DNA from: an uncultured Chloroflexia bacterium
Lineage (GTDB): Bacteria > Chloroflexota > Limnocylindria > Limnocylindrales > CSP1-4
Length of the DNA: 64,000 nucleotides
Assembly: GCA_963720715.1 (NCBI GenBank)
Contig: CAVRGM010000003.1
Coordinates: 45,427 to 109,426, forward strand
Direction: 5' to 3'
Positions 22,914 through 51,558 of this stretch are shown piece after piece (position 1 is the first letter of the stretch; the number at the start of each line of letters is the position of its first letter). A program made the position numbers and the translations under genes. The notes under the pieces were generated by a model. It was not told where the DNA came from, did not search any database, and saw only the letters and a program-made list of their open reading frames with translations.

Positions 22914-23214
22914 ATCCGGTGGATATCCGGCCAGCCGGGCGTCGACGAGTGGCCGCTCGACGGTGGACGGCGGTTCCCGATCAGGCTCTGATCGTGGGCC
23001 GACATGCGAACTGTCCACCGTCCGTCAACCACCGGTCCCCGACCGCCGGCTAGATCGCCCACCGCCCGGGACGGCCTGTCCACCACCCGACCGCGCACGA
23101 CCACACGAGACGACCCACACTGTCCACACCATTACTACGGTGATGATGAGGTGAGAAGATAGGGAGAGATACCCACCTACCGACGGGCGCGTTCGCGCTC
23201 GGGAACGATGTGGA
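22914..23214 (+). promoter_or_regulatory. dnaA-dnaN intergenic region with three DnaA-box-like motifs (candidate oriC core)
   Basis: xTGTCCACx motifs lie at 23013-23019, 23077-23083 and 23121-23128 (the last is CTGTCCACA), all in the same orientation. They are followed by a more AT-rich stretch 'cattactacggtgatgatgaggtgagaagataggg' before dnaN. Actinobacterial oriC typically lies between dnaA and dnaN. Confidence 0.5.
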
Positions 23215-24345: not shown

Positions 24346-24368
24346 GAGCGGCGGATCGGAAGGGACCC

Positions 24369-25508: not shown

Positions 25509-25837
25509 GCCCGGCCAGGCGCCGACCGATGGTCAGGATCGGTGACCTCATCCCCGATGCGGCCCGATCCCTCGGGTTGGAGGACGAACTCCGGTCCTCG
25601 CGGGCGATGGCCACGTTCGAGGCGCTGGTCGCCGAGCGCGTCCCGGCCGCGACAGGCGCCTGCCGGGTGGTCCGCCTTGAAGGGTTCATCCTCGACGTCG
25701 AGGCTGATGCGCCGATCGTCGCGCAGGAACTGCGGCTTCGATCGACCGAGCTGCTGGCCGCCTTCGCGACCGCGCCAGGTGGCGTCGGCGTGCGCGAGAT
25801 GCGGGTCCACGTGCGGCCCGGAGGCGCCCGCGTATAA
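25505..25837 (+). CDS. DUF721 domain protein (DciA-like, recF-associated)
   Basis: 110 aa with a GTG start overlapping the recF stop. It sits in the recF-gyrB neighbourhood position typical of DUF721 proteins. The assignment rests on position, size and basic character. Confidence 0.55.
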   Translation: MSPARRRPMVRIGDLIPDAARSLGLEDELRSSRAMATFEALVAERVPAATGACRVVRLEGFILDVEADAPIVAQELRLRSTELLAAFATAPGGVGVREMRVHVRPGGARV

Positions 25838-28250: not shown

Positions 28251-28814
28251 ATGGACGACGGACTGGTCGAGATGGTCGTCGAGAGCGTCCGGGTCCACAT
28301 GCTCTCCAGCCGCCACGTGGTCATCCTCAAGGAGGCGGCCGCCGAACGCGAGCGCTACCTGCCCATCTGGATCGGCCCGTGGGAAGCGAGCGCCATCGCC
28401 ATGCGACTGCAGGGCCTGGCCCCGGAACGTCCGCTGACGCACGACCTGTTCGCGGCCACGCTCGAGGCGGTCGGTGCCCGGATCGAACGGGTCGTCATCA
28501 GCGACTTGGCCGACGAGACGTTCCACGCCCGCATCCTGCTCGATCGGGATGGCCGGTCGTCAGAGGTGGATGCCCGGCCGTCGGACGCGCTCGCCCTGGC
28601 GGTCAGGACAGGGTCGCCGATCTACTGCTCGGAGGCCGTCCTGGAACAGGCGGCACTCGGCCGGGACGGCGGCCTCGGCGATGACACCGATGACGAGGGC
28701 TCGACCCTTGAGACGACCGGCGAGCGGTTGGTCGATCCGCGCCTGGATGTCTTCCGTGACTTCGTCAACTCGCTGGAGGCAGACGCCGAGGGGGGCGAAG
28801 GGCGCTCGAGCTAG
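28251..28814 (+). CDS. bifunctional nuclease (BFN/DUF151 domain) protein
   Basis: 'LPIWIGPWEASAIAMRLQG…RPLTHDL…ETFHARILLDRDG…DARPSDALALAVRTGSPIY' matches the DNase-RNase BFN domain pattern. Confidence 0.7.
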   Translation: MDDGLVEMVVESVRVHMLSSRHVVILKEAAAERERYLPIWIGPWEASAIAMRLQGLAPERPLTHDLFAATLEAVGARIERVVISDLADETFHARILLDRDGRSSEVDARPSDALALAVRTGSPIYCSEAVLEQAALGRDGGLGDDTDDEGSTLETTGERLVDPRLDVFRDFVNSLEADAEGGEGRSS

Positions 28815-30337: not shown

Positions 30338-30347
30338 CGGCGCAAGG

Positions 30348-33300
30348 ATGCCCTATCTGCGCCCTGTGCTACGCTCCCAGCCACCTTCCACGCTCGTGCA
30401 GGAGCCGTTCCCGGTGACTGGCCCCGAGACACACGGGATCGAGCGAGAGACACGAGCGCCGTCATTGGTGACCGGGACGCGGGGAGCCGTCGGCGCGATC
30501 CTCGTCGTCCTCGCGCTCGGCCTGGTCTTCCGTCTGATCCTCGCATATCGACTTCCAGGCTCCGGGTTCGAGGTCGACCTGGGCGCATTCCGGTACTGGG
30601 CGTCGAACCTCGCCTCCGAAGGGCCGTTCGGCTTCTACGACCGCGACTTCTTCCACGACTACACGCCTGGCTACCTGTACGTCCTGTGGCTCGTCGGCGT
30701 CGTCGGCAACGTCGTCGGTGGTGTTGGCGACCTGATCAAGATCCCGCCGATCCTGGCCGACCTGGCCATCGGCTGGCTCGTCTGGTCGATGGTCCGCGAG
30801 CTCGGCGGGCGGGACCGGCTGGCGCTGGCGGCGGGGCTCGTGGCCGTCCTGAACCCGATCACCTGGTTCGACAGCGTCGTCTGGGGCCAGGCCGATTCAG
30901 TCGGTGTCGTGTTCCTGTTGCTCGGGTTGCGCGAGCTGTGGCGCGACCGGCCCGAACGGGCGGCGATCTTCACGGTCGTCGCGGCGATCATCAAGCCGCA
31001 ACTCGGGATCCTCATCCCGATCGTCGCCGTGGTCACCATCCGGCGCGCACTCTGGCCAGCCGGCGGGCACGGCGACCCGACCCGGACCGGGCGACCGCTC
31101 AGGATCCTGACGACCGGTCTGGCCGGCTACCTGACCGCCGTGGTCATGTGCCTGCCGTTCGGCCTGACCGTCATCGGGTTGAGCGGCCAGCCGCCGTATC
31201 TGACGTCCGGGCTGCTGGAACAGGTCGCGGTCGCAGCCGGCGGCTATCCGTACCTGACGGTGAACGCCTACAACCCCTGGGCGCTGATGCCGTCCGATCT
31301 CGGCCAGAGTCTGGCCAACGCCGGGCAATGGGTCTGTGACTATGCCGGGACGGCCGCGGACTGTGGGGCCGGGTCGGCCACGTTCGGACCGATCCCTGCC
31401 GTAGTCGTCGGTACGACCCTGCTCCTGGCGGCGATCGCGCTGATCCTGGTGGTCGTCGCCCGGCGTCCCGACCGGCTGACCCTGCTCGTCGGCCTGGCCG
31501 TCCTGGCCCTGGCATTCTTCGTCCTTCCGACCCGGGTCCACGAGCGGTACGGCTTCCCGTTCTTCGCCATGGCCGTGATCCTGGCGGCGATCTCGTGGCG
31601 CTGGCGGATCGCCTACCTCGTCCTGTCCGTGGCGACGTTCGCCAACATGTACGTCGTCCTGACCACGCTCTATCCCGACAACCCGTCGATCGCGGATTGG
31701 CTGGGCCTCGGGCCGGCCATCCGCTCCGAGGCGGGAGTCATCGCCGTCTCCGTGCTGCATACGGCGGCCTTCGCCTGGGCGTTCCTGCAGCTCAGGTCGG
31801 GGACGCGCGCCCGGCTCGCCAACGAACTCGCGGCAGCGTCGGTGAAGGATCCGCCCGAGGCGGCAGCGGATCCCGGAGAACCCGTCGCGCCTCCCGTTCC
31901 CGCGCTGGGGACCGGCATTCGAACCCGTTCCGCAGGGGCCGCGGTCCGACCACCCGTGGTCGGACCGGCCGTGGCCGCGACCATGCCGACCTGGAAGGCT
32001 CGGCCCAGCTTCGAGGAGACCGGCATCGTCGGCTGGTTCCGGGCTCGCCTGGCTGACCCTCCCGTCCGGCCCGACCGGAGTGCCGTCCTTCGGTCGGAGG
32101 GCGGGGGGCGGCTGGACCGACTCGATCTGTGGTTGGTCATCGCCCTCGTCGTCGGCTCGATGTTGCTGCGCACGTATCGACTCGAACAGCCGTACCAGAT
32201 GCACTTCGACGAGGTGTACCACGCTCGGACCGCGGCCGAATTCCTCCAGGATTGGCGCTACGGCCTGTCCCACGACATCTACGAATGGACGCACCCACAC
32301 CTGGCCAAGTACGCGATGGCCGGCGGGCTCGTCCTGTGGGGCGGCGATCACGTCGGCGCGACGAGCGACCTCGGTGTGCCGGTCCGTGGCGTCGCGGTCG
32401 AGCCTCGGCGGCTCGACCAGTCGGCTCCCGGATCGCGGGCCGGTGAACGCCTCCACGTTGCCACTGGGTCCGAGGTCCGAACCTACGACCTGAACAGCCG
32501 AGCGCTGCTCTCAGTCGTCCCCTCTCCGGGCGCCACGAGCGTGGCCATCGATGACGCCCGAAACCAGCTGGTCGTCGGGGGTGAAGACGGCAGCCTGTCC
32601 ACTCTCGACCTCGCCTACCTCGACGCCGACGGGCAAGAGGCCGGGGTGGAGCCGCTTGCACTCGCGACCGTCGATCACCCGGTCGACCATCTGCTGGTCA
32701 GCCAGGACGGCGCAACGGTCATCGCGGCCTCCGGCGAGCGGCTGTCGGTGGTGGACCTTGACAGCGGCCAGGTGAAGGGCTCGATGGACCTGCCGGCCAT
32801 CGCCGATCTGGCGCCTGGGGGCAGTGGATCGTCGGTCGTGGCCGACATCGATGAAGTGACCGACCCGGCGGCTGTCGCCTCCGCCCTGGCGGCCATCCTC
32901 GATGCGGACGGGTCGTCCGGGTCCGAGGCCGACCTGGCCGCCGATTTCGAGGACCGCCTGGCATCTGGCGCGGCCGGCGGTTCGGTCACGCTCGGTGACC
33001 CGGGCAGCGGCGATACCCGAACGGCGCTCGACGACGCCATCGCCAGCGGGTCACTGCCGGGTGTCCGGGTCGACCAGGTCGACCGGATCGCGGTGGCGAC
33101 CGGCGACGGGGTCGCCTTCATCGATCCGGACCGGGTCTCGCTGATCACGACCGTCGTGCTCGAGGGTGGTGCCCACGGCCTCGCCATGGCGACCGGTCTG
33201 GATGACCCGAAGCTGTACGCGACAGCCGGTGACGCCAGCGCACCCGCCTACGAAGTGATCACCGTCGGCGGTGACTCGGCCAAGGGAGGACCGGTCGCCA

Positions 33301-35774
33301 GCGGGGACCACCCGCTCCCCGGGCTCGGGTCATCGGTCGCGTACGACCCGGCCAGCCAGATGATCCACATCCTCGGGCAGGCGCCGGCGCCGGATCAGGC
33401 CGACTGGACCGTCTACGTCGTCGAACCGCACGGCAACTCGGTCTTTGCCGACGCCCGCCTGCCCGAAGGGACGACACCGAGCGCCTGGGCGGCCGACTTC
33501 AACGCTGACTACCCGTCAGAGGATCGCCAGCAGTTGCTGGTGTTCGACGCGGACGGCCAGACCGCCGCCATCGACACCGGCTCGCACGCCTTTGCCTGGC
33601 GCCTGCCTGGCGTCATCGCCGGAGCTTTGACGGCCGGATTGCTCTTCCTGCTGACCCGGATCCTGTTCCGTCGACGCCTTGTGGCGGGCCTGGTGGGGCT
33701 CTTCGTCATCGCCGACGGGATGTTCTTCGTCCAGTCGCGGATCGGCATGAACGACGTCTATGTCGGGCTGTTCATCGTCGCCGCGTACACCCTGTTCGCG
33801 ACCATCTGGACCGGGTGGTGGCGTAGCCGAGGGGCGTTCTGGATCGCCATGCCGATCGTCGGGATCCTGCTTGGTCTGGCTCTCGCCAGCAAGTGGGTCG
33901 CCGCATATGCGATCGGGGCGCTGGTCCTGCTGATCCTCATCCGGAGCGCGCTGGGGCGCGTCCTGGCCATCCTCGGGTTGATCGGGATCACCACCGTCCT
34001 CGGCTACATGGCCATCTCCGTCGCGGCGGTCGAAGGCGGCCCGGACCCGGGTTTCGGCAACTTGACCTTCCTGCTGATCATGGTCGCCCTGACGCTGCTG
34101 GCGGTCGTGGTCGCGGTGCTGCATCCGATCGCCTGGACCGATGAAGAGATGCGCTTCGCGGTCGTCGCTCCATCGGTCCTCGGCGGGTTCGTGTTCTTCG
34201 GCGCACTGGCCCTGGGCAAGGTCGATCATCAGATCGCGCTCGGACCACTGGCCGTCACTCCGCTCCTCACGGCCATCGCCCTGGCCCTGGGTTCGCTCGT
34301 TGTGGTCGTCCTGTTCACGATCGGCGGGCGGCTGGGCTTCGGACCGCTGGCGGGGCCACCGGCGATGGACGATCCGATCCGACTGCTGGACCCGCCCGGG
34401 ACGCCGCCGGACGGCTGGCTGCGCCCGGGCTGGCTGGCCGGGATCCCGGTCGTCTGGGTCATCGTGAGCCTGACCGTCGTCCCGTTGGCGGTCTACGTCA
34501 TCAGCTACATCCCGTGGGCGATGATCGAGAACCACCAGATCATCGCGGGATGGCCCCCGGGTCACACCGGCCAGACGTTGCTTGACCTCACCGGTCAGAT
34601 GTACGGCTACCACAACGGCCTGACGTCCGCGCACCCCGCGTCCTCGCCGTGGTGGGCCTGGCCGATGAACCTCAAGCCCGTCTGGTTCTATCAGGAGGGT
34701 CTGGCCGCCGGTACGTCGGCGGCCCTGTACGACGCGGGCAGCCTGGTCATCTGGTGGATGAGCATCCCGGCAATGGCCTTCGTGTCATACATGGCGTACA
34801 AGCGACGCAGCCTGGCCCTGACCCTGATCGCCATCGGCTTCGCGGCCCAATGGATCCCCTGGGCGCGGATCGACCGGGCGGCATTCCAGTACCACTACTA
34901 CACGGCGCTGCCGTTCCTGGTCATGTCGCTGGCCTATTTCGCCGCCGAACTGTGGCACGGGGCATCGCGCCACACCTGGCTACTTGCCCGAGCCGCGGCC
35001 GCGATCGCGATCATGGGGCCAGCGATCCTGTGGCTGCTCGATCGGCCGCTGTGCGCGTTCGTCGGCGTCGACTCGGTCAACCCCGGATCCGCCGCCTGCC
35101 CCGCGGTCATCCCCGACTTCGTCCTGACCGCCCGAACGGCCGGGCTGGCGCTCGTTGCCGGCATCGGACTGGTTCTCATCGTGTGGCGCTTCCTCGCGTT
35201 CGAGTCTGACGAGGAGGTCGACGGCGAGGGTGGCCGGCTGACGTCAGCGCTCCGGTCCCTGGTCCTGACCGGGATCGTGGTCATCGTCGGGTTGATCGTC
35301 GTGGCGTTCCTGCCGGACACCCAGATCCTGGTCCTGACCAACGTCCCGGTCGAACCGATCGCGCTGGTCGTCGCGATCCCCCTCGGCTTCCTGGCGCTCC
35401 AGGTCTTCGCCTCACGCGACGCCCGCCGATTCGTGGTCGGTCTCGGGGTGGCGGTCGTGGCCTGGTTCGTCATCCTGTACCCGAACATCAGTGCGCTACC
35501 GCTCCCGTCGGCCGTCGTCGCCGCGTACCAGGGGATCCTGCCGACCTACCTGTATGCGTTCCAGTTCCCGGTCAGCACCGTCACTCGCGCCACCGACACG
35601 CCGATCCTGACCCCGATGCTCGCGATCCTCGGGATCGCCCTGACCGTGACCTGCCTGGTCGTCGCCTATTCGGCCTGGGTCTGGCGGCTGACGCTGGCCG
35701 ACGCGAAGGCGGCGTCCACTGAGTCAGCGACCGCGGACGGCCCCGAACCGATCGTGCGGACCGGGGGGACCTGA
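30348..35774 (+). CDS. giant (~1800 aa) membrane glycosyltransferase fusion: N-terminal GT-C domain (DUF2029/GT87-like) + beta-propeller-like repeats + PMT/GT39-like polyprenyl-phosphate-dependent glycosyltransferase
   Basis: The N-terminal polytopic domain has 'FRYWASNLASEGPFGFYDRDFFHDYTPGYLY'. The middle (~aa 700-1100) has repeated 'V(V)DLxSGxV…DG' strands. The C-terminal half carries the PMT signatures 'QMHFDEVYHARTAAEFL' and 'YEWTHPHLAKY', with a PMT-like TM core 'IADGMFFVQSRIGMNDVYVGLFIVAAY'. The start is set at the ATG at 30348 (a GTG at 30414 is an alternative). The ORF track's start at 30267 would overlap the divergent gene. Confidence 0.7.
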   Translation: MPYLRPVLRSQPPSTLVQEPFPVTGPETHGIERETRAPSLVTGTRGAVGAILVVLALGLVFRLILAYRLPGSGFEVDLGAFRYWASNLASEGPFGFYDRDFFHDYTPGYLYVLWLVGVVGNVVGGVGDLIKIPPILADLAIGWLVWSMVRELGGRDRLALAAGLVAVLNPITWFDSVVWGQADSVGVVFLLLGLRELWRDRPERAAIFTVVAAIIKPQLGILIPIVAVVTIRRALWPAGGHGDPTRTGRPLRILTTGLAGYLTAVVMCLPFGLTVIGLSGQPPYLTSGLLEQVAVAAGGYPYLTVNAYNPWALMPSDLGQSLANAGQWVCDYAGTAADCGAGSATFGPIPAVVVGTTLLLAAIALILVVVARRPDRLTLLVGLAVLALAFFVLPTRVHERYGFPFFAMAVILAAISWRWRIAYLVLSVATFANMYVVLTTLYPDNPSIADWLGLGPAIRSEAGVIAVSVLHTAAFAWAFLQLRSGTRARLANELAAASVKDPPEAAADPGEPVAPPVPALGTGIRTRSAGAAVRPPVVGPAVAATMPTWKARPSFEETGIVGWFRARLADPPVRPDRSAVLRSEGGGRLDRLDLWLVIALVVGSMLLRTYRLEQPYQMHFDEVYHARTAAEFLQDWRYGLSHDIYEWTHPHLAKYAMAGGLVLWGGDHVGATSDLGVPVRGVAVEPRRLDQSAPGSRAGERLHVATGSEVRTYDLNSRALLSVVPSPGATSVAIDDARNQLVVGGEDGSLSTLDLAYLDADGQEAGVEPLALATVDHPVDHLLVSQDGATVIAASGERLSVVDLDSGQVKGSMDLPAIADLAPGGSGSSVVADIDEVTDPAAVASALAAILDADGSSGSEADLAADFEDRLASGAAGGSVTLGDPGSGDTRTALDDAIASGSLPGVRVDQVDRIAVATGDGVAFIDPDRVSLITTVVLEGGAHGLAMATGLDDPKLYATAGDASAPAYEVITVGGDSAKGGPVASGDHPLPGLGSSVAYDPASQMIHILGQAPAPDQADWTVYVVEPHGNSVFADARLPEGTTPSAWAADFNADYPSEDRQQLLVFDADGQTAAIDTGSHAFAWRLPGVIAGALTAGLLFLLTRILFRRRLVAGLVGLFVIADGMFFVQSRIGMNDVYVGLFIVAAYTLFATIWTGWWRSRGAFWIAMPIVGILLGLALASKWVAAYAIGALVLLILIRSALGRVLAILGLIGITTVLGYMAISVAAVEGGPDPGFGNLTFLLIMVALTLLAVVVAVLHPIAWTDEEMRFAVVAPSVLGGFVFFGALALGKVDHQIALGPLAVTPLLTAIALALGSLVVVVLFTIGGRLGFGPLAGPPAMDDPIRLLDPPGTPPDGWLRPGWLAGIPVVWVIVSLTVVPLAVYVISYIPWAMIENHQIIAGWPPGHTGQTLLDLTGQMYGYHNGLTSAHPASSPWWAWPMNLKPVWFYQEGLAAGTSAALYDAGSLVIWWMSIPAMAFVSYMAYKRRSLALTLIAIGFAAQWIPWARIDRAAFQYHYYTALPFLVMSLAYFAAELWHGASRHTWLLARAAAAIAIMGPAILWLLDRPLCAFVGVDSVNPGSAACPAVIPDFVLTARTAGLALVAGIGLVLIVWRFLAFESDEEVDGEGGRLTSALRSLVLTGIVVIVGLIVVAFLPDTQILVLTNVPVEPIALVVAIPLGFLALQVFASRDARRFVVGLGVAVVAWFVILYPNISALPLPSAVVAAYQGILPTYLYAFQFPVSTVTRATDTPILTPMLAILGIALTVTCLVVAYSAWVWRLTLADAKAASTESATADGPEPIVRTGGT

Positions 35775-36925
35775 GGGACGGCCGAGCGGAAGTCGGGCGG
35801 CAACGCCCCGTTGGCCTCCAGGCGCCGGATCACGAACCCGTAGTAGTCCTCGACCTTGGCCGTGACACTCGGCCAGCTGAACGCCTCGGCGCGCGCCCGA
35901 CCGGCGCTGCCCATCTCGCGACGCAGGTCTGGGTCATCGAGCAGCCGAGCGATCGCGGCGGCCAGTTCATCCGGATCTCGTGGCGGGACGAGCAGGCCCT
36001 CGCGCCCGCGCCGGACGACGCCCTTGTAGCCGTGGATGTCCGAGGCCACGATCGGCGCCCCGGCGGCCATCGCCTCCAGCAGGACGATGCCGAATGACTC
36101 GCGTCCGGTCGCCGGAGCCACGTAGATGTCGGCGGTCCGGAACAGCTGGGCCTTCTCGGCATCGCTGACGCGCCCGAGGAACTCGACGGCCTGGAGACCG
36201 CGTGTCGCGACGTACCGTCGTGCTTCGCGCTCCTGCGGTCCGGACCCGACGACGAGCAGGCGCTCGTCGTAGCCCGACTTGCGCAGGATCCGATGTGCCT
36301 TGAGCAGGTCGAGGAGGCCCTTGCGTGGCTCATGCCGGCCGACGAAGAGGACGTTGGGCGTGCCGTCCTGCCAGCGCGCGATGGGGACGGCACCTTCGAA
36401 CCGAGGGATATCGACGCCGTTGGGGATGACCTTGTAGTCGCCGGGGAAGAACCGGTCGATGAAGTGGCGGGCGGCGGCGCTGACCGCGATCCGACCGTGG
36501 AGCTTCGCGGCATGGTCCTTCATCACCCGACTGCCGATCTCGTACGACGGCGAGAACCCCGCGTAGGCGTGGAAGGTCGCGATGTTGACACTGCGAGATT
36601 CACGCAGGAGGAAGAGCGACAGGAACGGCACGAATGGCTCGTGGAGGTGGAGGATGTCGAATCGCTCGCGGGCGAGCAGATCGCGGACCTGGCCGACATA
36701 GCGCGGCGAGAACGTCAGCGTCCCGATGGAGCCGTTGAGCGGCATGCTGAAGCCGACACCGATCCGCAGGATGTCGCCCTCCGACGAGCGCTGCGGTCCG
36801 TGGCTGGCGGTGATGATCCGGACGTCGTGCCCGCTCAGCCGAAGGTTCTCGTAGAGGTGACGGACGTGCTGGGCCACACCACCGGCTTCAGGGTAGATGT
36901 ACGGGCAGACCAGGCCGATCTTCAT
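35666..36925 (-). CDS. pimA: GT4 glycosyltransferase, PimA-like phosphatidylinositol mannosyltransferase
   Basis: 419 aa. The N-terminus 'MKIGLVCPYIYPEAGGVAQHV' and the C-terminal 'ESFGIVLLEAMAAGAPIVASDIHGY' EX7E region are typical of GT4/PimA. Its 3' end overlaps the convergent giant GT gene by ~108 nt. Confidence 0.8.
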   Translation of the reverse strand: MKIGLVCPYIYPEAGGVAQHVRHLYENLRLSGHDVRIITASHGPQRSSEGDILRIGVGFSMPLNGSIGTLTFSPRYVGQVRDLLARERFDILHLHEPFVPFLSLFLLRESRSVNIATFHAYAGFSPSYEIGSRVMKDHAAKLHGRIAVSAAARHFIDRFFPGDYKVIPNGVDIPRFEGAVPIARWQDGTPNVLFVGRHEPRKGLLDLLKAHRILRKSGYDERLLVVGSGPQEREARRYVATRGLQAVEFLGRVSDAEKAQLFRTADIYVAPATGRESFGIVLLEAMAAGAPIVASDIHGYKGVVRRGREGLLVPPRDPDELAAAIARLLDDPDLRREMGSAGRARAEAFSWPSVTAKVEDYYGFVIRRLEANGALPPDFRSAVPQVPPVRTIGSGPSAVADSVDAAFASASVSRQTQAE

Positions 36926-37752
36926 CGTGGGCCGCCGTCACCGAGTTTGCCGAGATCCGCGCCCTCGAACCGCGGGGGCCGTTGCCGACCGCCAGGGTAG
37001 CCGTGGTCGCGACCGGTGCCATCACGTCGGATCCGGCCGGCGACCTCGTCCCGTGCGTCGCGTCCACGCTTGCGCAACTGTTCGCCGAACGTGCCGAGCT
37101 GTCCGGCCGTGGCATGGAACGACCCCCCGTGTTCCGTCGTCCGGGCATCGATCGCCCGCCGCAGGTCGGCGGCATCCCGGCCAGGGAACGTCGTCCAGCC
37201 TGTTCCGATGGCGTCGACCGCGTGGGCGTCGCTGTTCCCGAGGTGGGCCAGACCGTGGTCGTCGGCGAAGCGGACGACCCTGCTGTGGAGCGGCCGACCC
37301 AGGCTCGTCGGATTGAACGTCTCGAGACCGTCGGGCCTGGCCCCCGGGTCGGCGTCGTCGAGGAGACGGCGCAGGGTCCAGGCCTGGGCACACAGCGGGT
37401 AGGGCACCAGGGGATGGGCCGGGATGGCCAATCCGCCGGCCTCGTGGACGGCGAGGATCGTCGTCCGCATCGACCGATAGGGTCGGATCGGGCCGTCGAT
37501 GAACAGGGCAAGCAGGTGACCGCCGAGCGTGGTGACCTCTTCGCCGACGACGACCTCGAAGGGCAGGGCTCGATCGATGGCCATCGTGCGGGCGGCCAGC
37601 GCGGCGTCGATCCGCTCGTGGTCCGTGATGGCGATGACATCCAGGTCACCCCGGTCGGCCACCGCAGCGAGGATCGTCTCGACCCCGGCGGTGCCGTCGC
37701 TGGCCAGGCTGTGGATATGCAGGTCGGCTCGCCCTGGCTCAGATGCCGTCAT
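36922..37752 (-). CDS. PHP-domain metal-dependent phosphoesterase
   Basis: 'ADLHIHSLASDG', 'AITDHE', and 'HLGNSDAHAV' form the PHP His/Asp metal-binding pattern. The start is at 'MTASEPGRADLHIHS'. Its stop overlaps the pimA-like start, indicating an operon. Confidence 0.7.
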   Translation of the reverse strand: MTASEPGRADLHIHSLASDGTAGVETILAAVADRGDLDVIAITDHERIDAALAARTMAIDRALPFEVVVGEEVTTLGGHLLALFIDGPIRPYRSMRTTILAVHEAGGLAIPAHPLVPYPLCAQAWTLRRLLDDADPGARPDGLETFNPTSLGRPLHSRVVRFADDHGLAHLGNSDAHAVDAIGTGWTTFPGRDAADLRRAIDARTTEHGGSFHATAGQLGTFGEQLRKRGRDARDEVAGRIRRDGTGRDHGYPGGRQRPPRFEGADLGKLGDGGPR

Positions 37753-38705
37753 GCGAGTGCCCCGGCCCCATCGTCGGGCGCGCCCACGGTCGCGTGCTCG
37801 AGATCCGGCCAGATCGGGAAGAAGATCGCCCACCACTGGTCGGGCGCATCGGCGATGAGTTCTTCGAACGCAGCGGACAGGCGGGTCATCGTGGCGGTCA
37901 CCCGCTCGCGACGAGTCCCATCGGTCGGGATGTCGATCGGGATCAGTCGGCCGCGATAGTGGCCCGCGGCGGTCCGCCGCACGGTCATGCCGTACACGGG
38001 CACGCCAGACTCGACGGCCAGCATGGCCGGGCCCATCGGCAGCCTGGCGGGTGCTCCGAACAACGGGATCGTCGCGCCGCCGCCGGTCAGGTCGCGATCG
38101 CCCACGAGACCGACCGGGATCCCGTCGCGAAGCGCGTCCATCAGCGCCCGCCGAGCTTCTCGAAGACCGACCAGACGGATCCCGTGGACACCCCGGGTCC
38201 GCTCGAAATAGGCCTGCAGGCCAGGGTCCTCGATGGTCTCCATCGGGGTGACCGTCGTCCCGACACGGAGCGCGAGATAGATCACGGCCAGCTCGAGCGA
38301 ACCGAAGTGCAGGCCGACGAACAGGACGGCCTTGCCTGGCACGACGGCTTCGGCGATCAACTCCGGGGTGTCAAGGCTCAGACGCTGGTCGACGTATTCG
38401 CGGGTCACCGCCGGCGTCCGGGCGACCTCCAGGTAGTAGCGAGCGGAATGCCGGAACGACGACCGGACGAGACGCTCCAGCGCGTTCGGGTCGGTCGCGG
38501 CTGCCTGGACCCGCGCGCTCCCCCGGCCCGACGCGGCGAGGGACCCGCAGACCCGCCGAAGGTTGCGTCGCGCCTGGTCGGCCCGTCCAGGGGCAAGCCG
38601 ATACCACAGGTCGCCGACGACCTCTGCGACGCGGAATGCCGGGCCCTCAGGAAGCCGGCAGGCAACCCACGACATGGCCAGGAGTAGGCGGCCACGGACC
38701 GTCAT
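37749..38705 (-). CDS. lysophospholipid/lipid A-type acyltransferase (LPLAT, PatA-like)
   Basis: The start is at '[20 protein letters not shown]'. The HtrB/PatA family shows in 'AVLFVGLHFGSLELA' (HX4D-type motif region) and 'VGLVGDRDLTGGG'. The ORF track's N-terminal extension to 39578 overlaps the next gene and is rejected. Confidence 0.7.
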   Translation of the reverse strand: MTVRGRLLLAMSWVACRLPEGPAFRVAEVVGDLWYRLAPGRADQARRNLRRVCGSLAASGRGSARVQAAATDPNALERLVRSSFRHSARYYLEVARTPAVTREYVDQRLSLDTPELIAEAVVPGKAVLFVGLHFGSLELAVIYLALRVGTTVTPMETIEDPGLQAYFERTRGVHGIRLVGLREARRALMDALRDGIPVGLVGDRDLTGGGATIPLFGAPARLPMGPAMLAVESGVPVYGMTVRRTAAGHYRGRLIPIDIPTDGTRRERVTATMTRLSAAFEELIADAPDQWWAIFFPIWPDLEHATVGAPDDGAGALA

Positions 38706-39754
38706 GTGGCGGAAACGGGTTCGGGCTCGGTCGCGGCCTGATCCGCGTCCCCGGTGGCCGGTCCGGGATCCGGGTCGCCGGCCTGCATGGCTCGCGCTCG
38801 TCGCTCCAGATCGGCCGCCTCGGCTGCGGTCGCCGGCCAGGTCGGCTTGAAGCTGTACCACTGTTCCGGGGCGGGACGGATCGACTCGGCAAGGACGTCG
38901 GCGATGGCCTGGGTCGCCCGTTGGAGCTCGGCTGGATCCGTCGAGGCGACGACGATCGGCTCGCCCAGGCTGAGATGCAGCCGCCGATCCGGGAGGCGCC
39001 TGGCCCGGACCGGCAGGATCCGTGACGATGTCTTGGCGGCCAGCGTGGCCGGACCAGCCGGCAGCGTCGTCCAGCCATCGAACAGCTTCACCGGGATCCC
39101 GTCGCTCCGATACCCCCAGTCCACGAGCAGGCCCAGGAGCTCGCGGCGCCGAAGCACCCCGAAGATCGCGCGCAGGTTGCGCCACGGGATGAGCGTCGTG
39201 CTCCAGGCCTCCCGCTGGCGCTGCAGGTGCTCGAACAATTCGGGAAAGGCCGAGTCGTCGGCGACGACGCTGAGCGGCAGGCCGAGGTGGGCGATCGCCG
39301 CACCGATGACGTCGTTGTTGCCGACGTGGCCGACCGTGATGATGAGACCGCCGTCGGGGGCAGCATCGCGGATCCGCTGGATCTCGGCCGGGTCGAGACC
39401 CTCGACGAGGTCGATGACCTCGGCCTGGGGCAGGTACGGGACCCGCATCAGCTCGACCAGATATCGACCGTATTCCCGGTACGCGCGGAGAGCCATCCGC
39501 CGGACGCGCGGGTCGTCGGGCGGCAGCCCCAGGACGTGCCCGAAGTTCTGGTTGGACCAGGTCCGCCTGGTCGGCCACAGGAGGTACGAGCCCTGGGCCG
39601 AAAGCCCGAGGATCGCCCCGGTCGGACCGGGCGGCAGCGTCCGTAGCAGCCAGGACACCGCGCGGTAGCCGATGACGGCCGAGCGCTCGACGATCCTGGG
39701 GCTGGACCCGCCGCGCCGGTGGGGCGCCTCGAGCCGTTTTTCGGCGTCGGTCAC
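38702..39754 (-). CDS. second LPLAT-family acyltransferase (PatA-like paralogue)
   Basis: 350 aa with '[21 protein letters not shown]' and '[13 protein letters not shown]', paralogous to the downstream acyltransferase. It ends with a Pro/Ala/Asp-rich tail. Confidence 0.7.
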
Positions 39755-40989
39755 TTCGCGGCGGTGGCCACCTTGGCCTTGGTCCCGGCCATCCGCTTGA
39801 CGGTCTTCTTGACCGGCGCTTCCGTGCCGACCAGGGTCTCGTTGTCGTCGCCGCGGATGAACGCCTCGACGCGGTTGAACGCGATGTCGTCGTGGATCTG
39901 GTGGGGCGGGCTCTTCATGAAGTAGCTGGACGGGGCCACGAGCGTGCCGGTCAGGCCGCGATCGAGTCCCAGCTTCAGACAGCGGATGGCATCGGTGATG
40001 ACGCCGGCGCTGTTGGGGCTGTCCCAGACTTCAAGTTTGAGCTCGGCGTTGAGCGGCACGTCGCCATAGGTCGTGCCCTCCATCCGGATGTAGCACCACT
40101 TGCGGTCGAGCAGCCACGGCACGTGATCGCTCGGCCCGACGTGGACATCGTCGGGATCCATCTCGTAGTCGAGCATCGACGTGACGGCGTTGGTCTTGCT
40201 GATCTTCTTGGACTCGAGCCGCTCCCGCTCCAGCATGTTGAGGAAGTCGGTATTGCCGCCGAAGTTGAGCTGGTAGGTCCGGTCGAGGCGGACGCCGCGA
40301 TCCATGAACAGGCGGGTCAGCACGCGATGGCTGATGGTCGCGCCGACCTGACTCTTGATGTCGTCTCCGATGACCGGCAGGCCGGCGGCCGCGAAACGGC
40401 GCTGCCAGTACGGCTCACGGCCGATGAACACGGGGATCGCGTTGACGAAGGCCACGCCCGCCTCGAGCGCCTGCTCGACGTACCACTTGGTCGCCTGTTC
40501 ACTGCCGACCGGCAGGTAGCTGACCATGACGTCGACTTCGCGTTCCTTGAGGATGCCGACGATGTCGGCGGTCGGGCCGGGGGCCTTCTCGATGACCTGG
40601 GACAGGTACTTGCCGAGGCCGTCGTGGGTCATCCCCCGCTCGACCGGCACGCCCATGGGCTGGACCTGCTGGAAGACATAGGTGTTGTTCGGCTTCGTGT
40701 AGATGGCTTCCGACAGATCCTTGCCGACCTTGTTCTTGTCGATGTCAAAGGCCGCCACGAACTCGATGTCCTTGACGTGGTATCCGCCAAGGTCGACGTG
40801 CATCAGCCCCGGCACAAAGTCGTCCTTCTTGGCGTTCTCGTAGTAGTAGCGACCCTGGACCAGGCTGCTGGCGCAGTTACCGACGCCGACGATGGCCACC
40901 CGGATCTTGCCGTCGCCGCGGCGACCGGCGCCCGCCCAGGTATTGGTCGGCTTGGAGCCGTTCTTGCCGTTCTTGCCGTTGGTTGCCAC
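39751..40989 (-). CDS. ino1: myo-inositol-1-phosphate synthase
   Basis: 412 aa with '[18 protein letters not shown]' NAD-binding, '[30 protein letters not shown]' and '[11 protein letters not shown]'. It is full-length Ino1 of the archaeal/actinobacterial type. Confidence 0.9.
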
Positions 40990-41006
40990 GTTGATCTCCG
41001 TTCTCC

Positions 41007-41645
41007 TTACTTGGTCGAGGTCTGGATGGCCGACTTGGCCTGGCTGCGGACATGGAGGATCCGCTGGATGACGGTGATGACGGCGCCGAGCGTGATGATC
41101 ACGAGGGCGATGGACAGGATGTCGAGGTTGCTCGTCGCCCCGGCGACGATGAGGCCGAGGCTGAGGATCACCAGCCGGATCTCGCGCGGCATGACCCCGA
41201 CGGCGGCCATCCCGGTACCGGCGGTGAAACCGAGCCCTTCTGACTTGGCCCGGGTGTAGCTGACCATGAACGCGGCACCGAGCGCCGCCGTGGCCAGGAT
41301 CGCGACCGGGTCAGATCCGGCCAGGACCCCGCCCCAGGCGATGCCGAGGTACACGATCGCCTCGCCCCAGCGATCGAACACGCTGTCCATGAAGGCGCCG
41401 AGGGTGCTGACCTTGCCGGTCGCCCGGGCGAGCGTGCCATCGAACATGTCGAAGACGCCGCCGATGAACACGACGATGCCCCCGACCAGCCAAAGCTGGG
41501 CGGCCAGCATGGCGGCCCCGATCGTGGTGATGCCGAAGCCGATGAGGGTCAGACCGTCAGGGGTCAGGCCCAGCCGGCCCATCCCGAGGGCGATCGGCTC
41601 GAAGACCTTCTTGATCCGGCCGCGGGACTCATTCGAGATCGTCAT
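41007..41645 (-). CDS. pgsA1: CDP-alcohol phosphatidyltransferase (phosphatidylinositol-phosphate synthase PgsA1-like)
   Basis: 212 aa with '[30 protein letters not shown]' = the D-x2-DG-x2-AR…G-x3-D-x3-D signature. It lies adjacent to ino1 and the acyltransferases, as in PI/PIM loci. Confidence 0.85.
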
Positions 41646-41653
41646 CGACGTGC

Positions 41654-42034
41654 TCAGCCTGCCACGCCAAGAACGGCGCGTTCGCGGGCGGCGAACTCGG
41701 AGAAGGCTTCCTCACGAAGGCGGCAGATCGTCTCGCGTCCGTTCCGACGCGTCTCGACGACGCCGGCTGCGCGGAGGCGACCGAGGTGCCACGACACCAG
41801 GGGTTGGCTCAGGCCGACATGGGCGATGAGTTCGGCGACCGTCGCGTCGCCCTCGGCCAGACGCCGGACGATACGCAACCGGTTCACGTCGGCCATCACC
41901 TTATGGAAGGCGCGCAGCTGGCGCAGCTCCTCGGGTTGGGCGACGGCCGCGGCGATGGTGCCGCGGACTCTGGCGGGTGACGGGGACAGGGCGGGACTCC
42001 GCTTTGGGGCGGTGCATCGTGGCACATCAACCAC
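41654..42034 (-). CDS. ArsR/SmtB family transcriptional regulator
   Basis: 'LRIVRRLAEGDATVAELIAHVGLSQPLVSWHLGRLRAAGVV' wHTH. The start is uncertain: internal Met at 41896, or upstream up to 42034. Confidence 0.6.
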   Translation of the reverse strand: MVDVPRCTAPKRSPALSPSPARVRGTIAAAVAQPEELRQLRAFHKVMADVNRLRIVRRLAEGDATVAELIAHVGLSQPLVSWHLGRLRAAGVVETRRNGRETICRLREEAFSEFAARERAVLGVAG

Positions 42035-42142
42035 GGTTTATATCAATCGCCGTTGATGCTAGGCCTCTGACCGGGCCGTGTCAACCTCCCTGAGGCGCGT
42101 TTCGCGGATCAGGAACGCCGCCGCGTGACCCTGCCTGGCAGG

Positions 42143-42556
42143 CTATCGGGCCGATCCGGATGAACCCGGTTGCTTCAATCTGCGCCAGCCTCCCGCCCGG
42201 TTGTTCGCGATGATCTGCTTGAACATCGCGAGCAACGCCTTCGATGGGACCGTCTCGCCCGCATAGACGGCGACAGTCCTGGCGGTCTTGTTGTCATGGC
42301 CCGCGGTGATGATCCTCTCAGGATCGGGGACGATCGCCCCGTCGTACAGAAAGACGTTCACGTGGTCCTTCGTCGCGAGCAGGGCACAGATGTTGCCCTC
42401 GAGAACGAAGTAGGGCCGGTCGGTCCGCTTGATCGTCTCGACCACGTCGGGGTCGGCAGCATGGACCAGCTCGCGTACCTCGCGGCAGATCGCCTGTTGC
42501 CAGGCCGGCAAGACATCGATGTACGCGTCGATGCGAGGATCTGCGCCGTGGCTCAT
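42143..42556 (-). CDS. DUF1801 domain protein (YdhG-like)
   Basis: 137 aa from 'MSHGADPRIDAYIDVLPAWQQAICREVRELV'. The upstream part of ORF 42143..43204 is Arg/Asp-rich low complexity and is rejected. Confidence 0.55.
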   Translation of the reverse strand: MSHGADPRIDAYIDVLPAWQQAICREVRELVHAADPDVVETIKRTDRPYFVLEGNICALLATKDHVNVFLYDGAIVPDPERIITAGHDNKTARTVAVYAGETVPSKALLAMFKQIIANNRAGGWRRLKQPGSSGSAR

Positions 42557-42625: not shown

Positions 42626-44173
42626 GTGGATCGGTCGGCCCTCCCGGGGCGCCTCGTCAGACTCGCGATCGCGGTCGGGCTGGGTGTCGTCCTGTCGACC
42701 ATTGTCGTCGCGGTCCTCGAGCAGCGGCTGGGCGTCCCGAACGCCTCGAGCCTGTACGTCGTGGCCGTGGCGATCGTGGCCATCACGTTCGGGATCGCGG
42801 GAGCCGCCCTCACAGCGTTCATCTCCGTCGTCGTGTACGACTACCTGTTCACGGTGCCGGTCCATACCCTGACCGTGGCTGATCCGGGCGAGTGGCTCAA
42901 TCTCGTGCTCCTGCTGTTCGTGGCGGTCATCGTCGGGCAATTGGCGGCGGCCCAACGCCGACGCGCGGAGACGGCGATCGCCCGAGATGAGGAATCCCGA
43001 GCGCTCTTCCAGGTCTCGAGATCCCTCGCCACACGGGAGTCCCTCGCGTCGGCCCTTCCCGACGTGGTCAGCGCACTGACCCGGTCGGCACGCACGGATC
43101 CCGTCTGGATCGCCCTCGGCGAAGACGATGCCGCCGAGCGGGTCGCCGCCCAATCGGGGACTCGTGCGTTGGACCGGGCCGGTCGCGGCTATTACGTGCT
43201 CCACGCCGATCCGGATGCCGCGTCCCGGTGGACCCTGGTCCGTCCACCCAGCGTCGGCCGGAGTCAGGGCGCCGCATCATCGACCCTGCTCCGAGTCCGG
43301 ATCATCGACGCCGGGAAGCCAGCTGGATCCATCTGGGCCGAACGACGTCCCGACCAGGCAACACCGAGCACGCAGGAGACCGCCCTGCTCCTGGTGGCGA
43401 CCGACTTGCTCGGGCAAGCACTTGCCCACGACCGGCTGGCCGAGGAAACTCGCCAGGCCGAGATCGCGCGACAGGCGGATGCGGTCAAGACCGCCCTCCT
43501 CGAATCCGTCTCGCACAACCTGCGGACCCCGCTGGCCTCGATCCGAGCGTCGGCTGGCACGCTGATGGATCCCGATGTGCACCTCTCCGGAGCGGAGACG
43601 CGGGCGAGCGCGGAATCGATCGATCGTGCGGCACAACGTCTCAACCGCCTCGTCGGCAACCTGCTCGATCTCAGTCGGATCGAAGGCGGTGCCCTGCGTG
43701 CCGCGCAGGACGTGGTCGACCTCGACGAGATCGTCGCGCGGGTCGTCCGCGAGATCGAGCCTCGGATCGGCGCCCGTCAGCTGGACCTGGCCATCGCCCA
43801 GGAAGCCCCAGTCCTCGGAGACCCGGTCCTGCTCGAGGAGGCCGTCCTGAACGTGCTGGACAACGCGGTCGTCCACACACCCAGGGACGCGACGGTCCGT
43901 GTGTCGGCCGGCGAGTCGGTCGAACCGGATCACATCCGCCTGACGATCGAGGACTCCGGGTCGGGGGTCCCAGACAATTCACTCGACCACATCTTCGAAA
44001 AGTTCTATCGGTACGGGACGAGCCCGCGGTCGACGTCCGGGACCGGGATCGGTCTCGCGATCGTCAAGGGCTTCGTGGAGGCGACCGGCGGCACCGTGTC
44101 GGCCCGGCGAAGCGATCTGGGTGGGCTCGCCATCGACATCGAGCTCCGGGCAGCCCCGGCGGACGCGACGTAG
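42626..44173 (+). CDS. sensor histidine kinase, KdpD C-terminal type (DUF4118 membrane domain + GAF-like + HisKA + HATPase)
   Basis: Four N-terminal TM helices, H-box 'ESVSHNLRTPLASIRAS', N/G boxes 'VLDNAVVHT…EDSGSGVP…GTGIGLAIVKG'. GTG start. It lacks the N-terminal KdpD/Usp sensor modules. Confidence 0.8.
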   Translation: MDRSALPGRLVRLAIAVGLGVVLSTIVVAVLEQRLGVPNASSLYVVAVAIVAITFGIAGAALTAFISVVVYDYLFTVPVHTLTVADPGEWLNLVLLLFVAVIVGQLAAAQRRRAETAIARDEESRALFQVSRSLATRESLASALPDVVSALTRSARTDPVWIALGEDDAAERVAAQSGTRALDRAGRGYYVLHADPDAASRWTLVRPPSVGRSQGAASSTLLRVRIIDAGKPAGSIWAERRPDQATPSTQETALLLVATDLLGQALAHDRLAEETRQAEIARQADAVKTALLESVSHNLRTPLASIRASAGTLMDPDVHLSGAETRASAESIDRAAQRLNRLVGNLLDLSRIEGGALRAAQDVVDLDEIVARVVREIEPRIGARQLDLAIAQEAPVLGDPVLLEEAVLNVLDNAVVHTPRDATVRVSAGESVEPDHIRLTIEDSGSGVPDNSLDHIFEKFYRYGTSPRSTSGTGIGLAIVKGFVEATGGTVSARRSDLGGLAIDIELRAAPADAT

Positions 44174-44185
44174 GATCGAGGTTCC

Positions 44186-44959
44186 ATGGTGCGCGATCGA
44201 GCGGACGGGTCACTCGTGCTCCTCGTCGAGGACGACGAGGCGACCCGGGCCGCGCTGCGCCGTGATCTGGTCGCGCGAGGGTTCCAGGTGTCGGACGTGG
44301 CTGACGGGCAGACGGCGTTGGCGAGATGGGAGGCGCAGCGGCCCGATGTGATCCTGCTCGACCTCGGCCTGCCGGACATCGATGGATCGGTCGTCATCCG
44401 ACGCGTCCGACGCGATGCGCAGACCCCGATCATCGTCCTGTCGGCACGCGACGCGGAGGCGACCAAGGTCGAAGCCCTCGAGCTCGGCGCCGATGACTAC
44501 GTGACGAAGCCGTTCGGTATGGCCGAACTCCATGCCCGACTGCGGTCCGTGATCCGGCGCGCGGCCGGGCCGGCCGCCGATCCGACCGGCCGGGTCGTGG
44601 CCGGCGACCTCATCTTCGATGTATCGAGCCATCAGGTCAGCGTCAGCGGACAGTCGGTCGAGCTGACCCCACGGGAATTCGAGGTCCTGCGAGTCCTGCT
44701 CGCCAACCGCGGCAGGCTGGTCACCCGTGGTCGCCTGTTGCGTGCGGTCTGGGGTGAGGCGTATTCCGGCGAGGATCACTATGTCCATGTCTACGTCAGC
44801 CAGATCCGACGAAAACTGGCCGCGGCCGATCGCCGGGGGTCGCTCCGGGGACTCATCGAGACCGAGCCGGGTGTCGGGTATCGCGTCCGGGGCGACGGCC
44901 ACACCGATGAGCGAGGCGACGATGCGCCCGCACCGGGGCCTGACTTGAGCGGTTCTTGA
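44186..44959 (+). CDS. OmpR/KdpE-family response regulator
   Basis: Receiver 'LLVEDDEATR…VILLDLGLPDIDG…DDYVTKPF' plus a winged-helix output 'LTPREFEVLRVLLANRGRLVTRGRLLRAVWG'. Confidence 0.85.
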   Translation: MVRDRADGSLVLLVEDDEATRAALRRDLVARGFQVSDVADGQTALARWEAQRPDVILLDLGLPDIDGSVVIRRVRRDAQTPIIVLSARDAEATKVEALELGADDYVTKPFGMAELHARLRSVIRRAAGPAADPTGRVVAGDLIFDVSSHQVSVSGQSVELTPREFEVLRVLLANRGRLVTRGRLLRAVWGEAYSGEDHYVHVYVSQIRRKLAAADRRGSLRGLIETEPGVGYRVRGDGHTDERGDDAPAPGPDLSGS

Positions 44960-51530: not shown

Positions 51531-51558
51531 GGGAGGGTCGAGCGCATTCCCTCGGCGA

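Follow-up and report, generated by a model that had tools for sequence, protein, structure and literature searches.

A PHP-Domain Phosphoesterase Encoded in a PIM-Type Inositol-Lipid Operon of Chloroflexota Is a Candidate Phosphatidylinositol-Phosphate Phosphatase

Introduction

To make inositol lipids, bacteria and archaea must dephosphorylate phosphatidylinositol phosphate (PIP) to phosphatidylinositol (PI), and phosphatidylinositol mannosides (PIMs), lipomannan, and lipoarabinomannan lie downstream of this step. Here, we analyze a gene cluster of this pathway in a 64,000-nucleotide stretch of DNA (the window) from an uncultured soil Chloroflexota bacterium (GenBank assembly GCA_963720715.1, contig CAVRGM010000003.1, positions 45,427–109,426 of the forward strand). 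One of its genes encodes a metal-dependent phosphoesterase of the PHP superfamily, which we consider a candidate PIP phosphatase.

The mycobacterial PIP phosphatase was termed “yet-unidentified” in 2019, and that of archaea and bacteria generally “unidentified” in 2022. A preprint of July 2026 calls the mycobacterial enzyme “as-yet unidentified” and “long-sought” and proposes EphE, an α/β-hydrolase, for the role, from a predicted complex with PimA and the loss of PIMs in a mutant, with a non-canonical mechanism (bioRxiv 10.64898/2026.07.15.738315). The same preprint describes mycobacterial PimA as using PI and predicts that a NUDIX/LemA protein contacts PimA. In Bacteroides thetaiotaomicron, the PgpA-like protein BT_1525 is the PIP phosphatase by genetics, and its deletion leads to accumulation of PIP-diacylglycerol (PIP-DAG) (Heaver et al. 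2022, PMC9246714). An initial annotation of the window knew of no enzyme assigned to this step; this agrees with how the Actinobacteria and Archaea are described, but not with the assignment of BT_1525 in Bacteroides.

The gene arrangement that most resembles the window cluster is the mycobacterial pgsA1-patA-pimA locus (Rv2612c–Rv2609c; ML0451c–ML0452c), with which it shares a PIP synthase, a PatA-type acyltransferase, and PimA, all in one direction. Beyond these, the window cluster contains ino1, an ArsR regulator, and one more acyltransferase, and it has a PHP phosphoesterase where mycobacteria have the LemA/NUDIX protein. Full-text searches found no literature linking PHP domains to PI, PimA, PIP synthase, or Ino1.

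Results

A PIM-Type Inositol-Lipid Operon in the Window

The cluster comprises seven genes in the same direction on the minus strand, spanning positions 35666–42034. The probable first gene of the operon encodes an ArsR-family helix-turn-helix regulator (41654–42034; Pfam HTH_5, E = 6e-13). It is followed by the gene for a 212-residue PIP synthase, a CDP-alcohol phosphatidyltransferase (CAPT) resembling PgsA1 and PIPS (41007–41645; CDP-OH_P_transf), and by ino1, encoding a 412-residue myo-inositol-1-phosphate (inositol-3-phosphate) synthase (39751–40989; Inos-1-P_synth, E = 6.5e-35). Next are two PatA-like acyltransferases, AT1 (350 residues, 38702–39754; Lip_A_acyltrans) and AT2 (318 residues, 37749–38705, with its start at ATG 38705; Lip_A_acyltrans, E = 4e-31), then the candidate PIP phosphatase itself, a 276-residue PHP-superfamily metal-dependent phosphoesterase (36922–37752; PHP_C). 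The last gene encodes a 419-residue PimA-like glycosyltransferase of family 4 (GT4), a putative GDP-mannose:PI α-mannosyltransferase recognized by its Protein Data Bank (PDB) match to PimA (35666–36925). Pfam matches and reading of the sequence bear out the string of genes as initially annotated, in strand, order, and coordinates. Its extent had been given as 35666–41645, but the unit continues upstream to the ArsR gene at 42034.

Four overlaps of 4 nucleotides can be read in the sequence, GTGA at the ino1/AT1 junction and ATGA at AT1/AT2, AT2/PHP, and PHP/pimA; the PHP gene is thus translationally coupled to both of its neighbors, as had been noted. The stop codon of the ArsR gene lies 8 nucleotides ahead of the transferase start. 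A promoter-like site 5′ of the ArsR gene (42056–42084, minus strand; TTGACA, a 17-nucleotide spacer, and TAGCAT) is a consensus match, fitting 10 of 12 positions, and is the sole such σ70-like site within 35400–42400. ArsR also heads the cluster in 52 of the 80 related loci described below and is present in minimal ArsR-PHP-PIPS modules. The mechanically delimited open reading frame (ORF) of the PHP gene, with 304 residues from a GTG at 37836, was rejected as too long. We place the start at ATG 37752 (MTASEPGRADLHIHS, 276 residues), because this creates the 4-nucleotide overlap and fits a 276-residue homolog with 96% identity and 100% coverage; the closest homologs carry the names Chloroflexota or Candidatus Limnocylindrales.

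Pfam and NCBIfam scans reveal no second phosphatase-like gene in the operon, and there is no PgpA match among the genes Pfam-scanned in window positions 17764–57896. The region is best explained as one operon containing ArsR, PIP synthase, Ino1, two PatA-like acyltransferases, PHP, and PimA. Inositol-lipid operons of this PIM type are a known kind, found here in a phylum that has received little study.

Pathway Enzymes around the PHP Gene

The best PDB matches of the transferase are Renibacterium PIPS (E = 1.6e-24) and Mycobacterium tuberculosis PgsA1 (E = 1.8e-18). Among NCBIfam models it scores highest against archaetidylinositol-phosphate (AIP) synthase (NF040950, 136.5 bits) and PIP synthase (NF045883, 128 bits), under the equivalog cut-offs of 180 and 170 bits curated for these two models, and reaches only 24.8 bits against the pgsA model, far under both. 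Seven cluster transferases from different lineages likewise always score best against the PIP/AIP synthase models. The CAPT signature D-x2-D-G-x2-A-R-x8-G-x3-D-x3-D is present, and its motif residues are invariant in these seven proteins. In M. tuberculosis PgsA1, the pocket for the phosphate of inositol phosphate is formed by R94, S132, R152, R155, and R195, together with K135 and R137 (PMC6506517). When the window transferase is aligned to PDB entry 6h53, R94, S132, Y133, R152, R155, and R195 are identical, with K135 replaced by Arg and R137 by Lys. The corresponding R90, S127, Y128, R147, R150, and R181 (Thermodesulfobium numbering) are invariant across the seven cluster transferases. By these sequence criteria the transferase, initially annotated as pgsA1-like, appears to be a divergent member of the PIP/AIP synthase functional type. 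Judged by knowledge of the family and the conserved residues, its product should be PIP rather than PI, and the operon therefore needs a phosphatase.

The remaining pathway enzymes also agree with their initial labels. Ino1 scores 527.9 bits against NCBIfam TIGR03450, under the 638-bit cut-off. Both acyltransferases score highest against PRK07920, the NCBIfam model of the PIM acyltransferase (AT1, 113.1 bits; AT2, 131.6 bits), whose cut-off of 209 bits neither reaches, and their PDB matches are to PatA only (AT1, E = 3.5e-16; AT2, E = 3.7e-17). The catalytic His of PatA aligns in both, with HFGSLE and HVGNND facing HSGNWD. The GT4 protein aligns with PDB-deposited M. smegmatis PimA over residues 1–364 against 5–366 (E = 4e-65), well ahead of its next-best matches, PimB′ (3e-24) and MshA (1.6e-20). 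Its motifs ESFGIVLLEAMAAG, GRH-EPRKG, and ATFH align with PimA, the second of them facing GRYdEPRKG, and the E-x7-E motif RESFGIVLLEAMAAG aligns with GESFGIVLVEAMAAG of PimA; we take the E-x7-E motif and the R/K pair to be GDP-mannose-site residues of PimA. The PimA segment HRKVKKWI, presumably the basic membrane-binding patch of the N-terminal domain, corresponds to YVGQVRDLL in the window GT4, which keeps one basic residue.

A Compact PHP Protein with a Predicted Intact Active Site

The window PHP protein matches Pfam PHP_C at 44.1 bits (cut-off 21.3) and Pfam PHP at 20.5 bits, under the cut-off of 26.4, a threshold that many of its homologs exceed. In an alignment of 30 homologs with 30%–66% identity, residues H12, H14, D19, H45, E72, H79, H113, D175, and H177 either do not vary or show at least 90% conservation. 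If PHP enzymes of solved structure are taken as a guide, these residues would make up the complete metal-ligand pattern HxH…D…H…E…H…H…DxH, and their conservation indicates that the catalytic machinery is intact.

An AlphaFold2 (AF2) model built on this alignment is of good confidence, with a predicted local distance difference test (pLDDT) score of 88.5 and a predicted template modeling (pTM) score of 0.86. It shows alternating strands and helices as in the PHP barrel, a long C-terminal helix (residues 215–237), and then a disordered tail. Searched against the PDB, the model gives 37 matches at E ≤ 1e-3, and the 43 best-ranked entries are all PHP-domain proteins. Its structural neighbors 3e38, 2anu, RNase AM (7ug9 and 9etk), PsfC, BAD_1165, and the bisphosphonucleotide phosphatase Cv1693 (2yb1) are all at most 24% identical in sequence. 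The insertion of about 85 residues that follows the third strand in the TrpH/RNase AM group is missing from the window protein: query residues 77–92 span 71–171 of the 9etk chain, and residues 92–98 of the family profile span 84–171. The active site, with no such capping insertion in the model, is probably open.

Known PHP families were considered as a home for the protein and rejected. The family profile scores 84 and 68 bits against RNase AM and 56 bits against Cv1693, and the window protein falls far below the NCBIfam equivalog cut-offs for RNase RNM (47.6 bits against 375) and nucleoside bisphosphate phosphatase (36.3 against 400). Homology to the PHP domain of PolX or to histidinol phosphatase (HisK), of which the initial annotation had been wary, is confined to marginal, local N-terminal matches (PolX, E = 3e-4 over 40 residues; HisK, E = 0.004), and the Foldseek template modeling (TM) scores to both are at most 0.4. 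On these scores and the missing insertion, we exclude the protein from the histidinol phosphatases and from the PolX-PHP, YcdX, and RNase AM groups. Pfam and NCBIfam searches give no PgpA and no α/β-hydrolase match, so the protein lacks homology to the families of BT_1525 and EphE, and any function it shared with them would be analogy rather than membership. In the databases, these proteins bear generic names: TrpH-like phosphoesterase, PHP-associated domain protein, or CehA/McbA metallohydrolase.

Of the 30 family members, 24 have an acidic core and 28 a C-terminal tail that is net basic; no transmembrane segment is apparent by eye. From these features we infer a cytoplasmic enzyme that would be able to dock on an anionic membrane. 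Two other family members (P0240 and P0248) carry a C-terminal STAS domain fusion.

Linkage to PIP Synthase through Many Gene Orders

We collected 80 genome loci, one genome per species, using a 13-sequence PHP alignment as the query, and identified the neighbors by searching the six-frame ORFs of these loci with the window proteins. The PHP relatives are 40%–81% identical and come from Limnocylindria, Dehalococcoidia, Ktedonobacteria (including the cultured Thermogemmatispora and Ktedonobacter), Tepidiformaceae, and others. PIPS and/or PimA is found near the PHP gene in 78 of the 80. We counted as fully flanked the 48 loci that extend 5 kb or more upstream and 3.5 kb or more downstream; of these, 46 have PIPS within 8 kb, 43 have PimA, 40 have an acyltransferase, and 39 have Ino1.

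This linkage survives extensive rearrangement. Twenty ordered gene strings were tallied; some are truncated forms of the same cluster, and at least six basic gene orders remain. ArsR-PIPS-Ino1-AT-AT-PHP-PimA is found in 33 loci, and further orders are Ino1-AT-AT-PHP-PimA-PIPS, Ino1-PHP-PimA-PIPS, and ArsR-AT-AT-PHP-PimA-PIPS. A bare ArsR-PHP-PIPS module, seen in Ktedonobacteraceae, occurs in five genome and four metagenome loci; it is flanked by an unrelated two-component system and an NYN-domain gene, with no glycosyltransferase nearby. The transferase adjoining PHP is of the PIP/AIP synthase type in every lineage sampled. Outside the Chloroflexota, Thermodesulfobium narugense DSM 14796, whose genome is complete, has the order PHP-Ino1-AT-PHP-PIPS-AT-GT4, and two more metagenome lineages hold the cluster in still other orders. 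The linkage of PHP to the PI pathway is kept in three phyla through many gene orders. The co-occurrence with pgsA1, ino1, and pimA that the initial annotation had named as a check is thus found in Chloroflexota, in Thermodesulfobium, and, in the form of a PimA fusion, in Thermoleophilia.

A Sister PHP Subfamily Fused to PimA

We also sampled in reverse, taking 80 metagenome loci picked by PIPS alone, regardless of PHP. Where PHP does occur in the flanks, four loci have the arrangement ArsR-PHP-PIPS, and three have PIPS-Ino1 followed by a single ORF of 652–705 residues. These three long ORFs place GT4 domains at the N terminus and PHP plus PHP_C at the C terminus. They are 33%–52% identical to one another over their full length, and the GT4 part matches positions 1–364 of the window PimA.

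A search with the fusion protein of one of these loci (L125) returned 208 proteins at E ≤ 1e-20. Domains were checked in the best 120 of the 208, and 118 of these bear both GT4 and PHP domains in 570–730 residues. The named sources are Thermoleophilia, Gaiella, Solirubrobacteraceae, Thermoleophilaceae, and Actinomycetota, and the database name is simply glycosyltransferase. The fusions directly follow PIPS-Ino1, and the two that were checked in their own genomes also follow PIPS and Ino1. We accept these GT4-then-PHP fusions because their order is opposite to that of the overlapping genes and their full length is conserved. Two ORFs (P0125 and P0220) carry PHP ahead of GT4, as do the overlapping genes of the window; they could be frameshift artifacts and were not used as evidence; the long representatives P0132, P0185, P0155, P0195, P0145, and P0205 give no Pfam match at E ≤ 1e-5.

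The fused PHP domain belongs to a sister subfamily, which we call B, to distinguish it from subfamily A of the window protein. It scores 126–156 bits against the family-A profile and is 42%–45% identical to the second PHP paralog of T. narugense. In that organism, the two PHP paralogs (L081, 5508–6164 and 8001–8735; L087, CP002690.1) are about 30% identical, the A type adjoining PIPS and the B type lying directly upstream of ino1; they may have different substrates. The domain composition of the fusions indicates that a PHP protein of the subfamily-B kind works with PimA, and by analogy the same may hold for subfamily A.

Four of the PIPS-picked loci (L088, L093, L108, and L126) represent a separate lineage, with Ino1-PIPS but no PHP and a small HTH_28 protein ahead. 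In the two that were checked (L088 and L126), a DRTGG/AAA_26 protein also lies ahead of Ino1-PIPS, and no phosphatase candidate adjoins the pair. PgpA-like genes were considered beside the PHP-less Ino1-PIPS pairs and rejected, the small upstream ORFs being HTH_28 or Hsp20 proteins, not phosphatases.

Surroundings of the Operon

On the plus strand, a gene for an 1835-residue membrane glycosyltransferase of the GT-C class (30267–35774; Pfam PMT and PMT_4TMC, with a weak NCBIfam match to protein O-mannosyltransferase) is convergent to pimA, sharing 109 nucleotides with the 3′ end of that gene. It is likewise convergent in most Limnocylindria loci and possibly belongs to the pathway as a downstream mannosylation step. 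A second GT-C protein of 508 residues (28811–30337, minus strand; TMEM260-like, E = 1.5e-25; PMT_2, E = 4e-10) is linked to the cluster by adjacency only. Possible roles for the two are the extension of PIMs to lipomannan-like glycans and the O-mannosylation of proteins.

A sensor kinase (DUF4118-HisKA) and response regulator pair adjoins the cluster at 42626–44959 on the plus strand. In a Ktedonobacteraceae locus (L055, 6771–9002), the ArsR-PHP-PIPS module has another such pair directly upstream, and their presence at both may reflect coincidence or shared regulation. Farther away, dnaA, dnaN, a recF-like SMC_N protein gene, and the gene for DciA stand in a row at 21510–25837, which places the window near a chromosomal replication origin. 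A 759-residue ORF (25950–28229, plus strand) has gene-like codon composition and no Pfam match at E ≤ 1e-4. A trehalose-phosphatase-like HAD protein (50655–51587, minus strand), about 9 kb from the cluster, is unlinked to it in related loci.

Discussion

We propose a model in which the operon would make acylated PIMs from glucose-6-phosphate and CDP-diacylglycerol (CDP-DAG). Ino1 would form inositol-1-phosphate, and the PgsA1-type synthase would combine this with CDP-DAG into PI-3-phosphate at the membrane's cytoplasmic face. The PHP protein, cytoplasmic and peripherally membrane associated, would then remove the 3-phosphate monoester to give PI. PimA would mannosylate the inositol 2-OH, beside the former 3-phosphate, and the PatA-like enzymes would acylate the product. 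The missing capping insertion, together with a basic C-terminal helix and tail on an acidic core, would fit an open site that approaches an anionic lipid headgroup. The Thermoleophilia fusion, with a subfamily-B PHP domain at the C terminus of PimA, would mean that the enzyme producing PI and the one consuming it share a single polypeptide.

We regard it as highly probable that the PHP gene belongs to the inositol-lipid pathway. That its product is the PIP phosphatase is the best-supported explanation and, in our estimate, somewhat better than evenly balanced. Several lines of evidence lead to it. A phosphatase is needed, and the operon holds no other candidate; PIPS is the most constant partner of PHP, which persists with PIPS alone; a related subfamily forms a fusion with PimA, which consumes PI; the active site is predicted to be intact and, without the capping insertion, is probably open; and a cytoplasmic location would match the site at which PIP is made and PimA acts. 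The need for a phosphatase is also supported by the mature PI or PIMs of relatives that bear the cluster or the fusion. Members of the Chloroflexota are reported to have PI and glycolipids of undefined identity, and among the cluster bearers, Dictyobacter contains PI, which is a major lipid in Ktedonobacteria; Solirubrobacter, among the fusion bearers, is reported to have both PI and PIMs. For the broader proposal, that the free-standing subfamily A and its sister B, both without the insertion, are cytoplasmic-face PI-3-phosphate phosphatases of the PgsA1-type pathway in Chloroflexota, Thermodesulfobium, and Thermoleophilia, with the B fusion handing PI to PimA, we see about equal grounds for belief and doubt.

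Several observations weigh against this assignment. The substrate is one that we infer, and the closest characterized relatives, RNase AM and Cv1693, act on nucleotides. PHP is found in the flanks of just 7 of the 80 PIPS-picked metagenome loci, which rules out a universal PHP-PIPS partnership, and many Ino1-PIPS pairs in that sample have no phosphatase-like neighbor; the association is strong but lineage restricted. One edge of it is marked by a family member on a low-GC contig, possibly of the candidate phyla radiation (P0266), which has LytR and DUF5656 neighbors and no PI genes. The fusion concerns subfamily B, which is only about 30% identical to the window protein, and the T. narugense cluster holds both types, so their functions may differ. 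In other lineages, unrelated proteins fill this role or have been proposed for it, namely BT_1525 (PMC9246714) and EphE (bioRxiv 10.64898/2026.07.15.738315). Rival lipid phosphatases also occur beside PIPS: a PAP2_3 gene overlaps the PIPS start in Gaiella (L168, 1815–2555), and another follows a 413-residue PIPS (L159, 9225–10196). Such a protein could be an alternative PIP phosphatase or an inositol-phosphoryl transferase resembling inositol phosphorylceramide (IPC) synthase. PgpB and other PAP2 phosphatases are oriented toward the membrane's outer side, which makes the PAP2_3 protein a less obvious feeder of PimA, though still a rival.

The main rival to the PIP-phosphatase role, unlikely as we judge it, is that PHP acts on a nucleotide linked to the pathway (GDP released by PimA, GDP-mannose, 3′-phosphoadenosine 5′-phosphate [pAp], or CMP) as a functional counterpart of the NUDIX domain that closes the mycobacterial pgsA-patA-pimA operon. 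This would fit the nucleotide phosphoesterases among its nearest characterized homologs, RNase AM and Cv1693, with the profile scores given above, the weak NCBIfam matches to RNase RNM and nucleoside bisphosphate phosphatase, and the predicted contact of the mycobacterial NUDIX/LemA protein with PimA; fusion to PimA, a user of GDP-mannose, is equally compatible with it. However, the minimal ArsR-PHP-PIPS modules have no glycosyltransferase, PIPS is narrowly the most constant neighbor (46 of 48, against 43 for PimA), the roughly 85-residue TrpH/RNase AM insertion is absent, and the pathway would be left without a candidate for its obligatory dephosphorylation. The modules without PimA or PatA also speak against a later role, in which PimA and/or PatA would use PIP and PHP would dephosphorylate the mannosylated or acylated product. 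The position of the PHP gene between the acyltransferases and pimA, coupled to both, is as expected for such a role, and a PimA fusion fits any step adjoining PimA, but PimA mannosylates the 2-OH beside the 3-phosphate, mycobacterial PimA is described as PI using, and PI itself is a major lipid in Ktedonobacteria. We therefore find this order of steps quite unlikely.

Two further roles were considered. As a phosphodiesterase, a regulatory or turnover enzyme for PI/PIM lipids, or a passenger gene, PHP would be in keeping with the diesterases known among PHP enzymes (RNase AM, and cyclic phosphate dihydrolase, to which there are weak NCBIfam matches), with the PHP-STAS fusions elsewhere in the family, and with the one family member that lacks a PI context. 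We think this very unlikely, because a passenger is hard to square with linkage through many gene orders in three phyla, with fusion of a subfamily to PimA, and with translational coupling, and a degradative enzyme co-translated with biosynthetic ones would be futile. Least probable of the four is that PHP would be a soluble phosphatase for inositol-1-phosphate, providing free inositol as an analog of inositol monophosphatase (IMPase/SuhB). Ino1 is in the cluster, the B-type PHP of T. narugense is encoded directly upstream of ino1, and PHP enzymes include small-molecule phosphomonoesterases such as the distantly related histidinol phosphatase; but the type of transferase found here uses inositol phosphate directly, so that an IMPase in the operon would destroy its substrate. 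PHP also stays with PIPS where ino1 is not nearby, is fused to the lipid-acting PimA in Thermoleophilia, and has a basic C-terminal tail on an acidic core that suggests membrane association.

If PHP is the PIP phosphatase, the PHP superfamily would gain its first phosphatase for lipid headgroups, and this step a third non-homologous solution, beside BT_1525 of the PgpA-like type and EphE as proposed. The pathway would then be complete in several large soil phyla, and different lineages would have arrived at PIP dephosphorylation with unrelated enzymes. As a small soluble enzyme, the PHP protein could also serve as a heterologous tool in Bacteroides without BT_1525 or in M. smegmatis without ephE. 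The candidate draws on linkage conserved in three phyla and on a natural PimA fusion in a PIM-producing actinobacterial class, and our survey documents the PIM-type cluster across the Chloroflexota.

The closest characterized relatives of the window PHP protein are TrpH/RNase AM and Cv1693 (COG0613, PHP plus PHP_C). They have the metal-ligand pattern and PHP_C in common with it, but identity is 20%–24%, the insertion of about 85 residues is missing, and their context is RNA or sulfur metabolism rather than lipid biosynthesis. Cv1693, a 3′,5′-bisphosphonucleotide phosphatase, removes a 3′-phosphate monoester. The best fold matches, TM0559 (2anu) and BVU_3505 (3e38), with Foldseek E values of 6e-12 to 6e-11 and TM scores of about 0.6–0.74, are compact PHP barrels sized like the window protein; they are 18%–20% identical to it and, as structural-genomics entries, add no functional information.

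Compared with the proteins assigned to the step elsewhere, the window PHP protein resembles BT_1525 in genomic setting, since in both cases the phosphatase gene, or that proposed to be one, clusters with those for PIP synthase and MIPS/Ino1. BT_1525 belongs to the PgpA family and is supported by genetics, whereas the window protein is an unrelated PHP barrel whose role is put forward from genomic evidence. EphE is likewise a candidate for this step argued from association with PimA, but it has an unrelated fold and is encoded outside the operon, whereas the window protein has a standard metal-dependent phosphoesterase site. The overall likeness is greatest to the mycobacterial operon. The window enzymes all fall under the cut-offs of the actinobacterial NCBIfam equivalogs, in an organism that belongs to the Chloroflexota (Candidatus Limnocylindrales), yet the PIP synthases of the two operons have the same inositol-phosphate-binding residues, and the mycobacterial logic of PIP to PI to PIM1 to acylated PIM is the same as that of the window operon.

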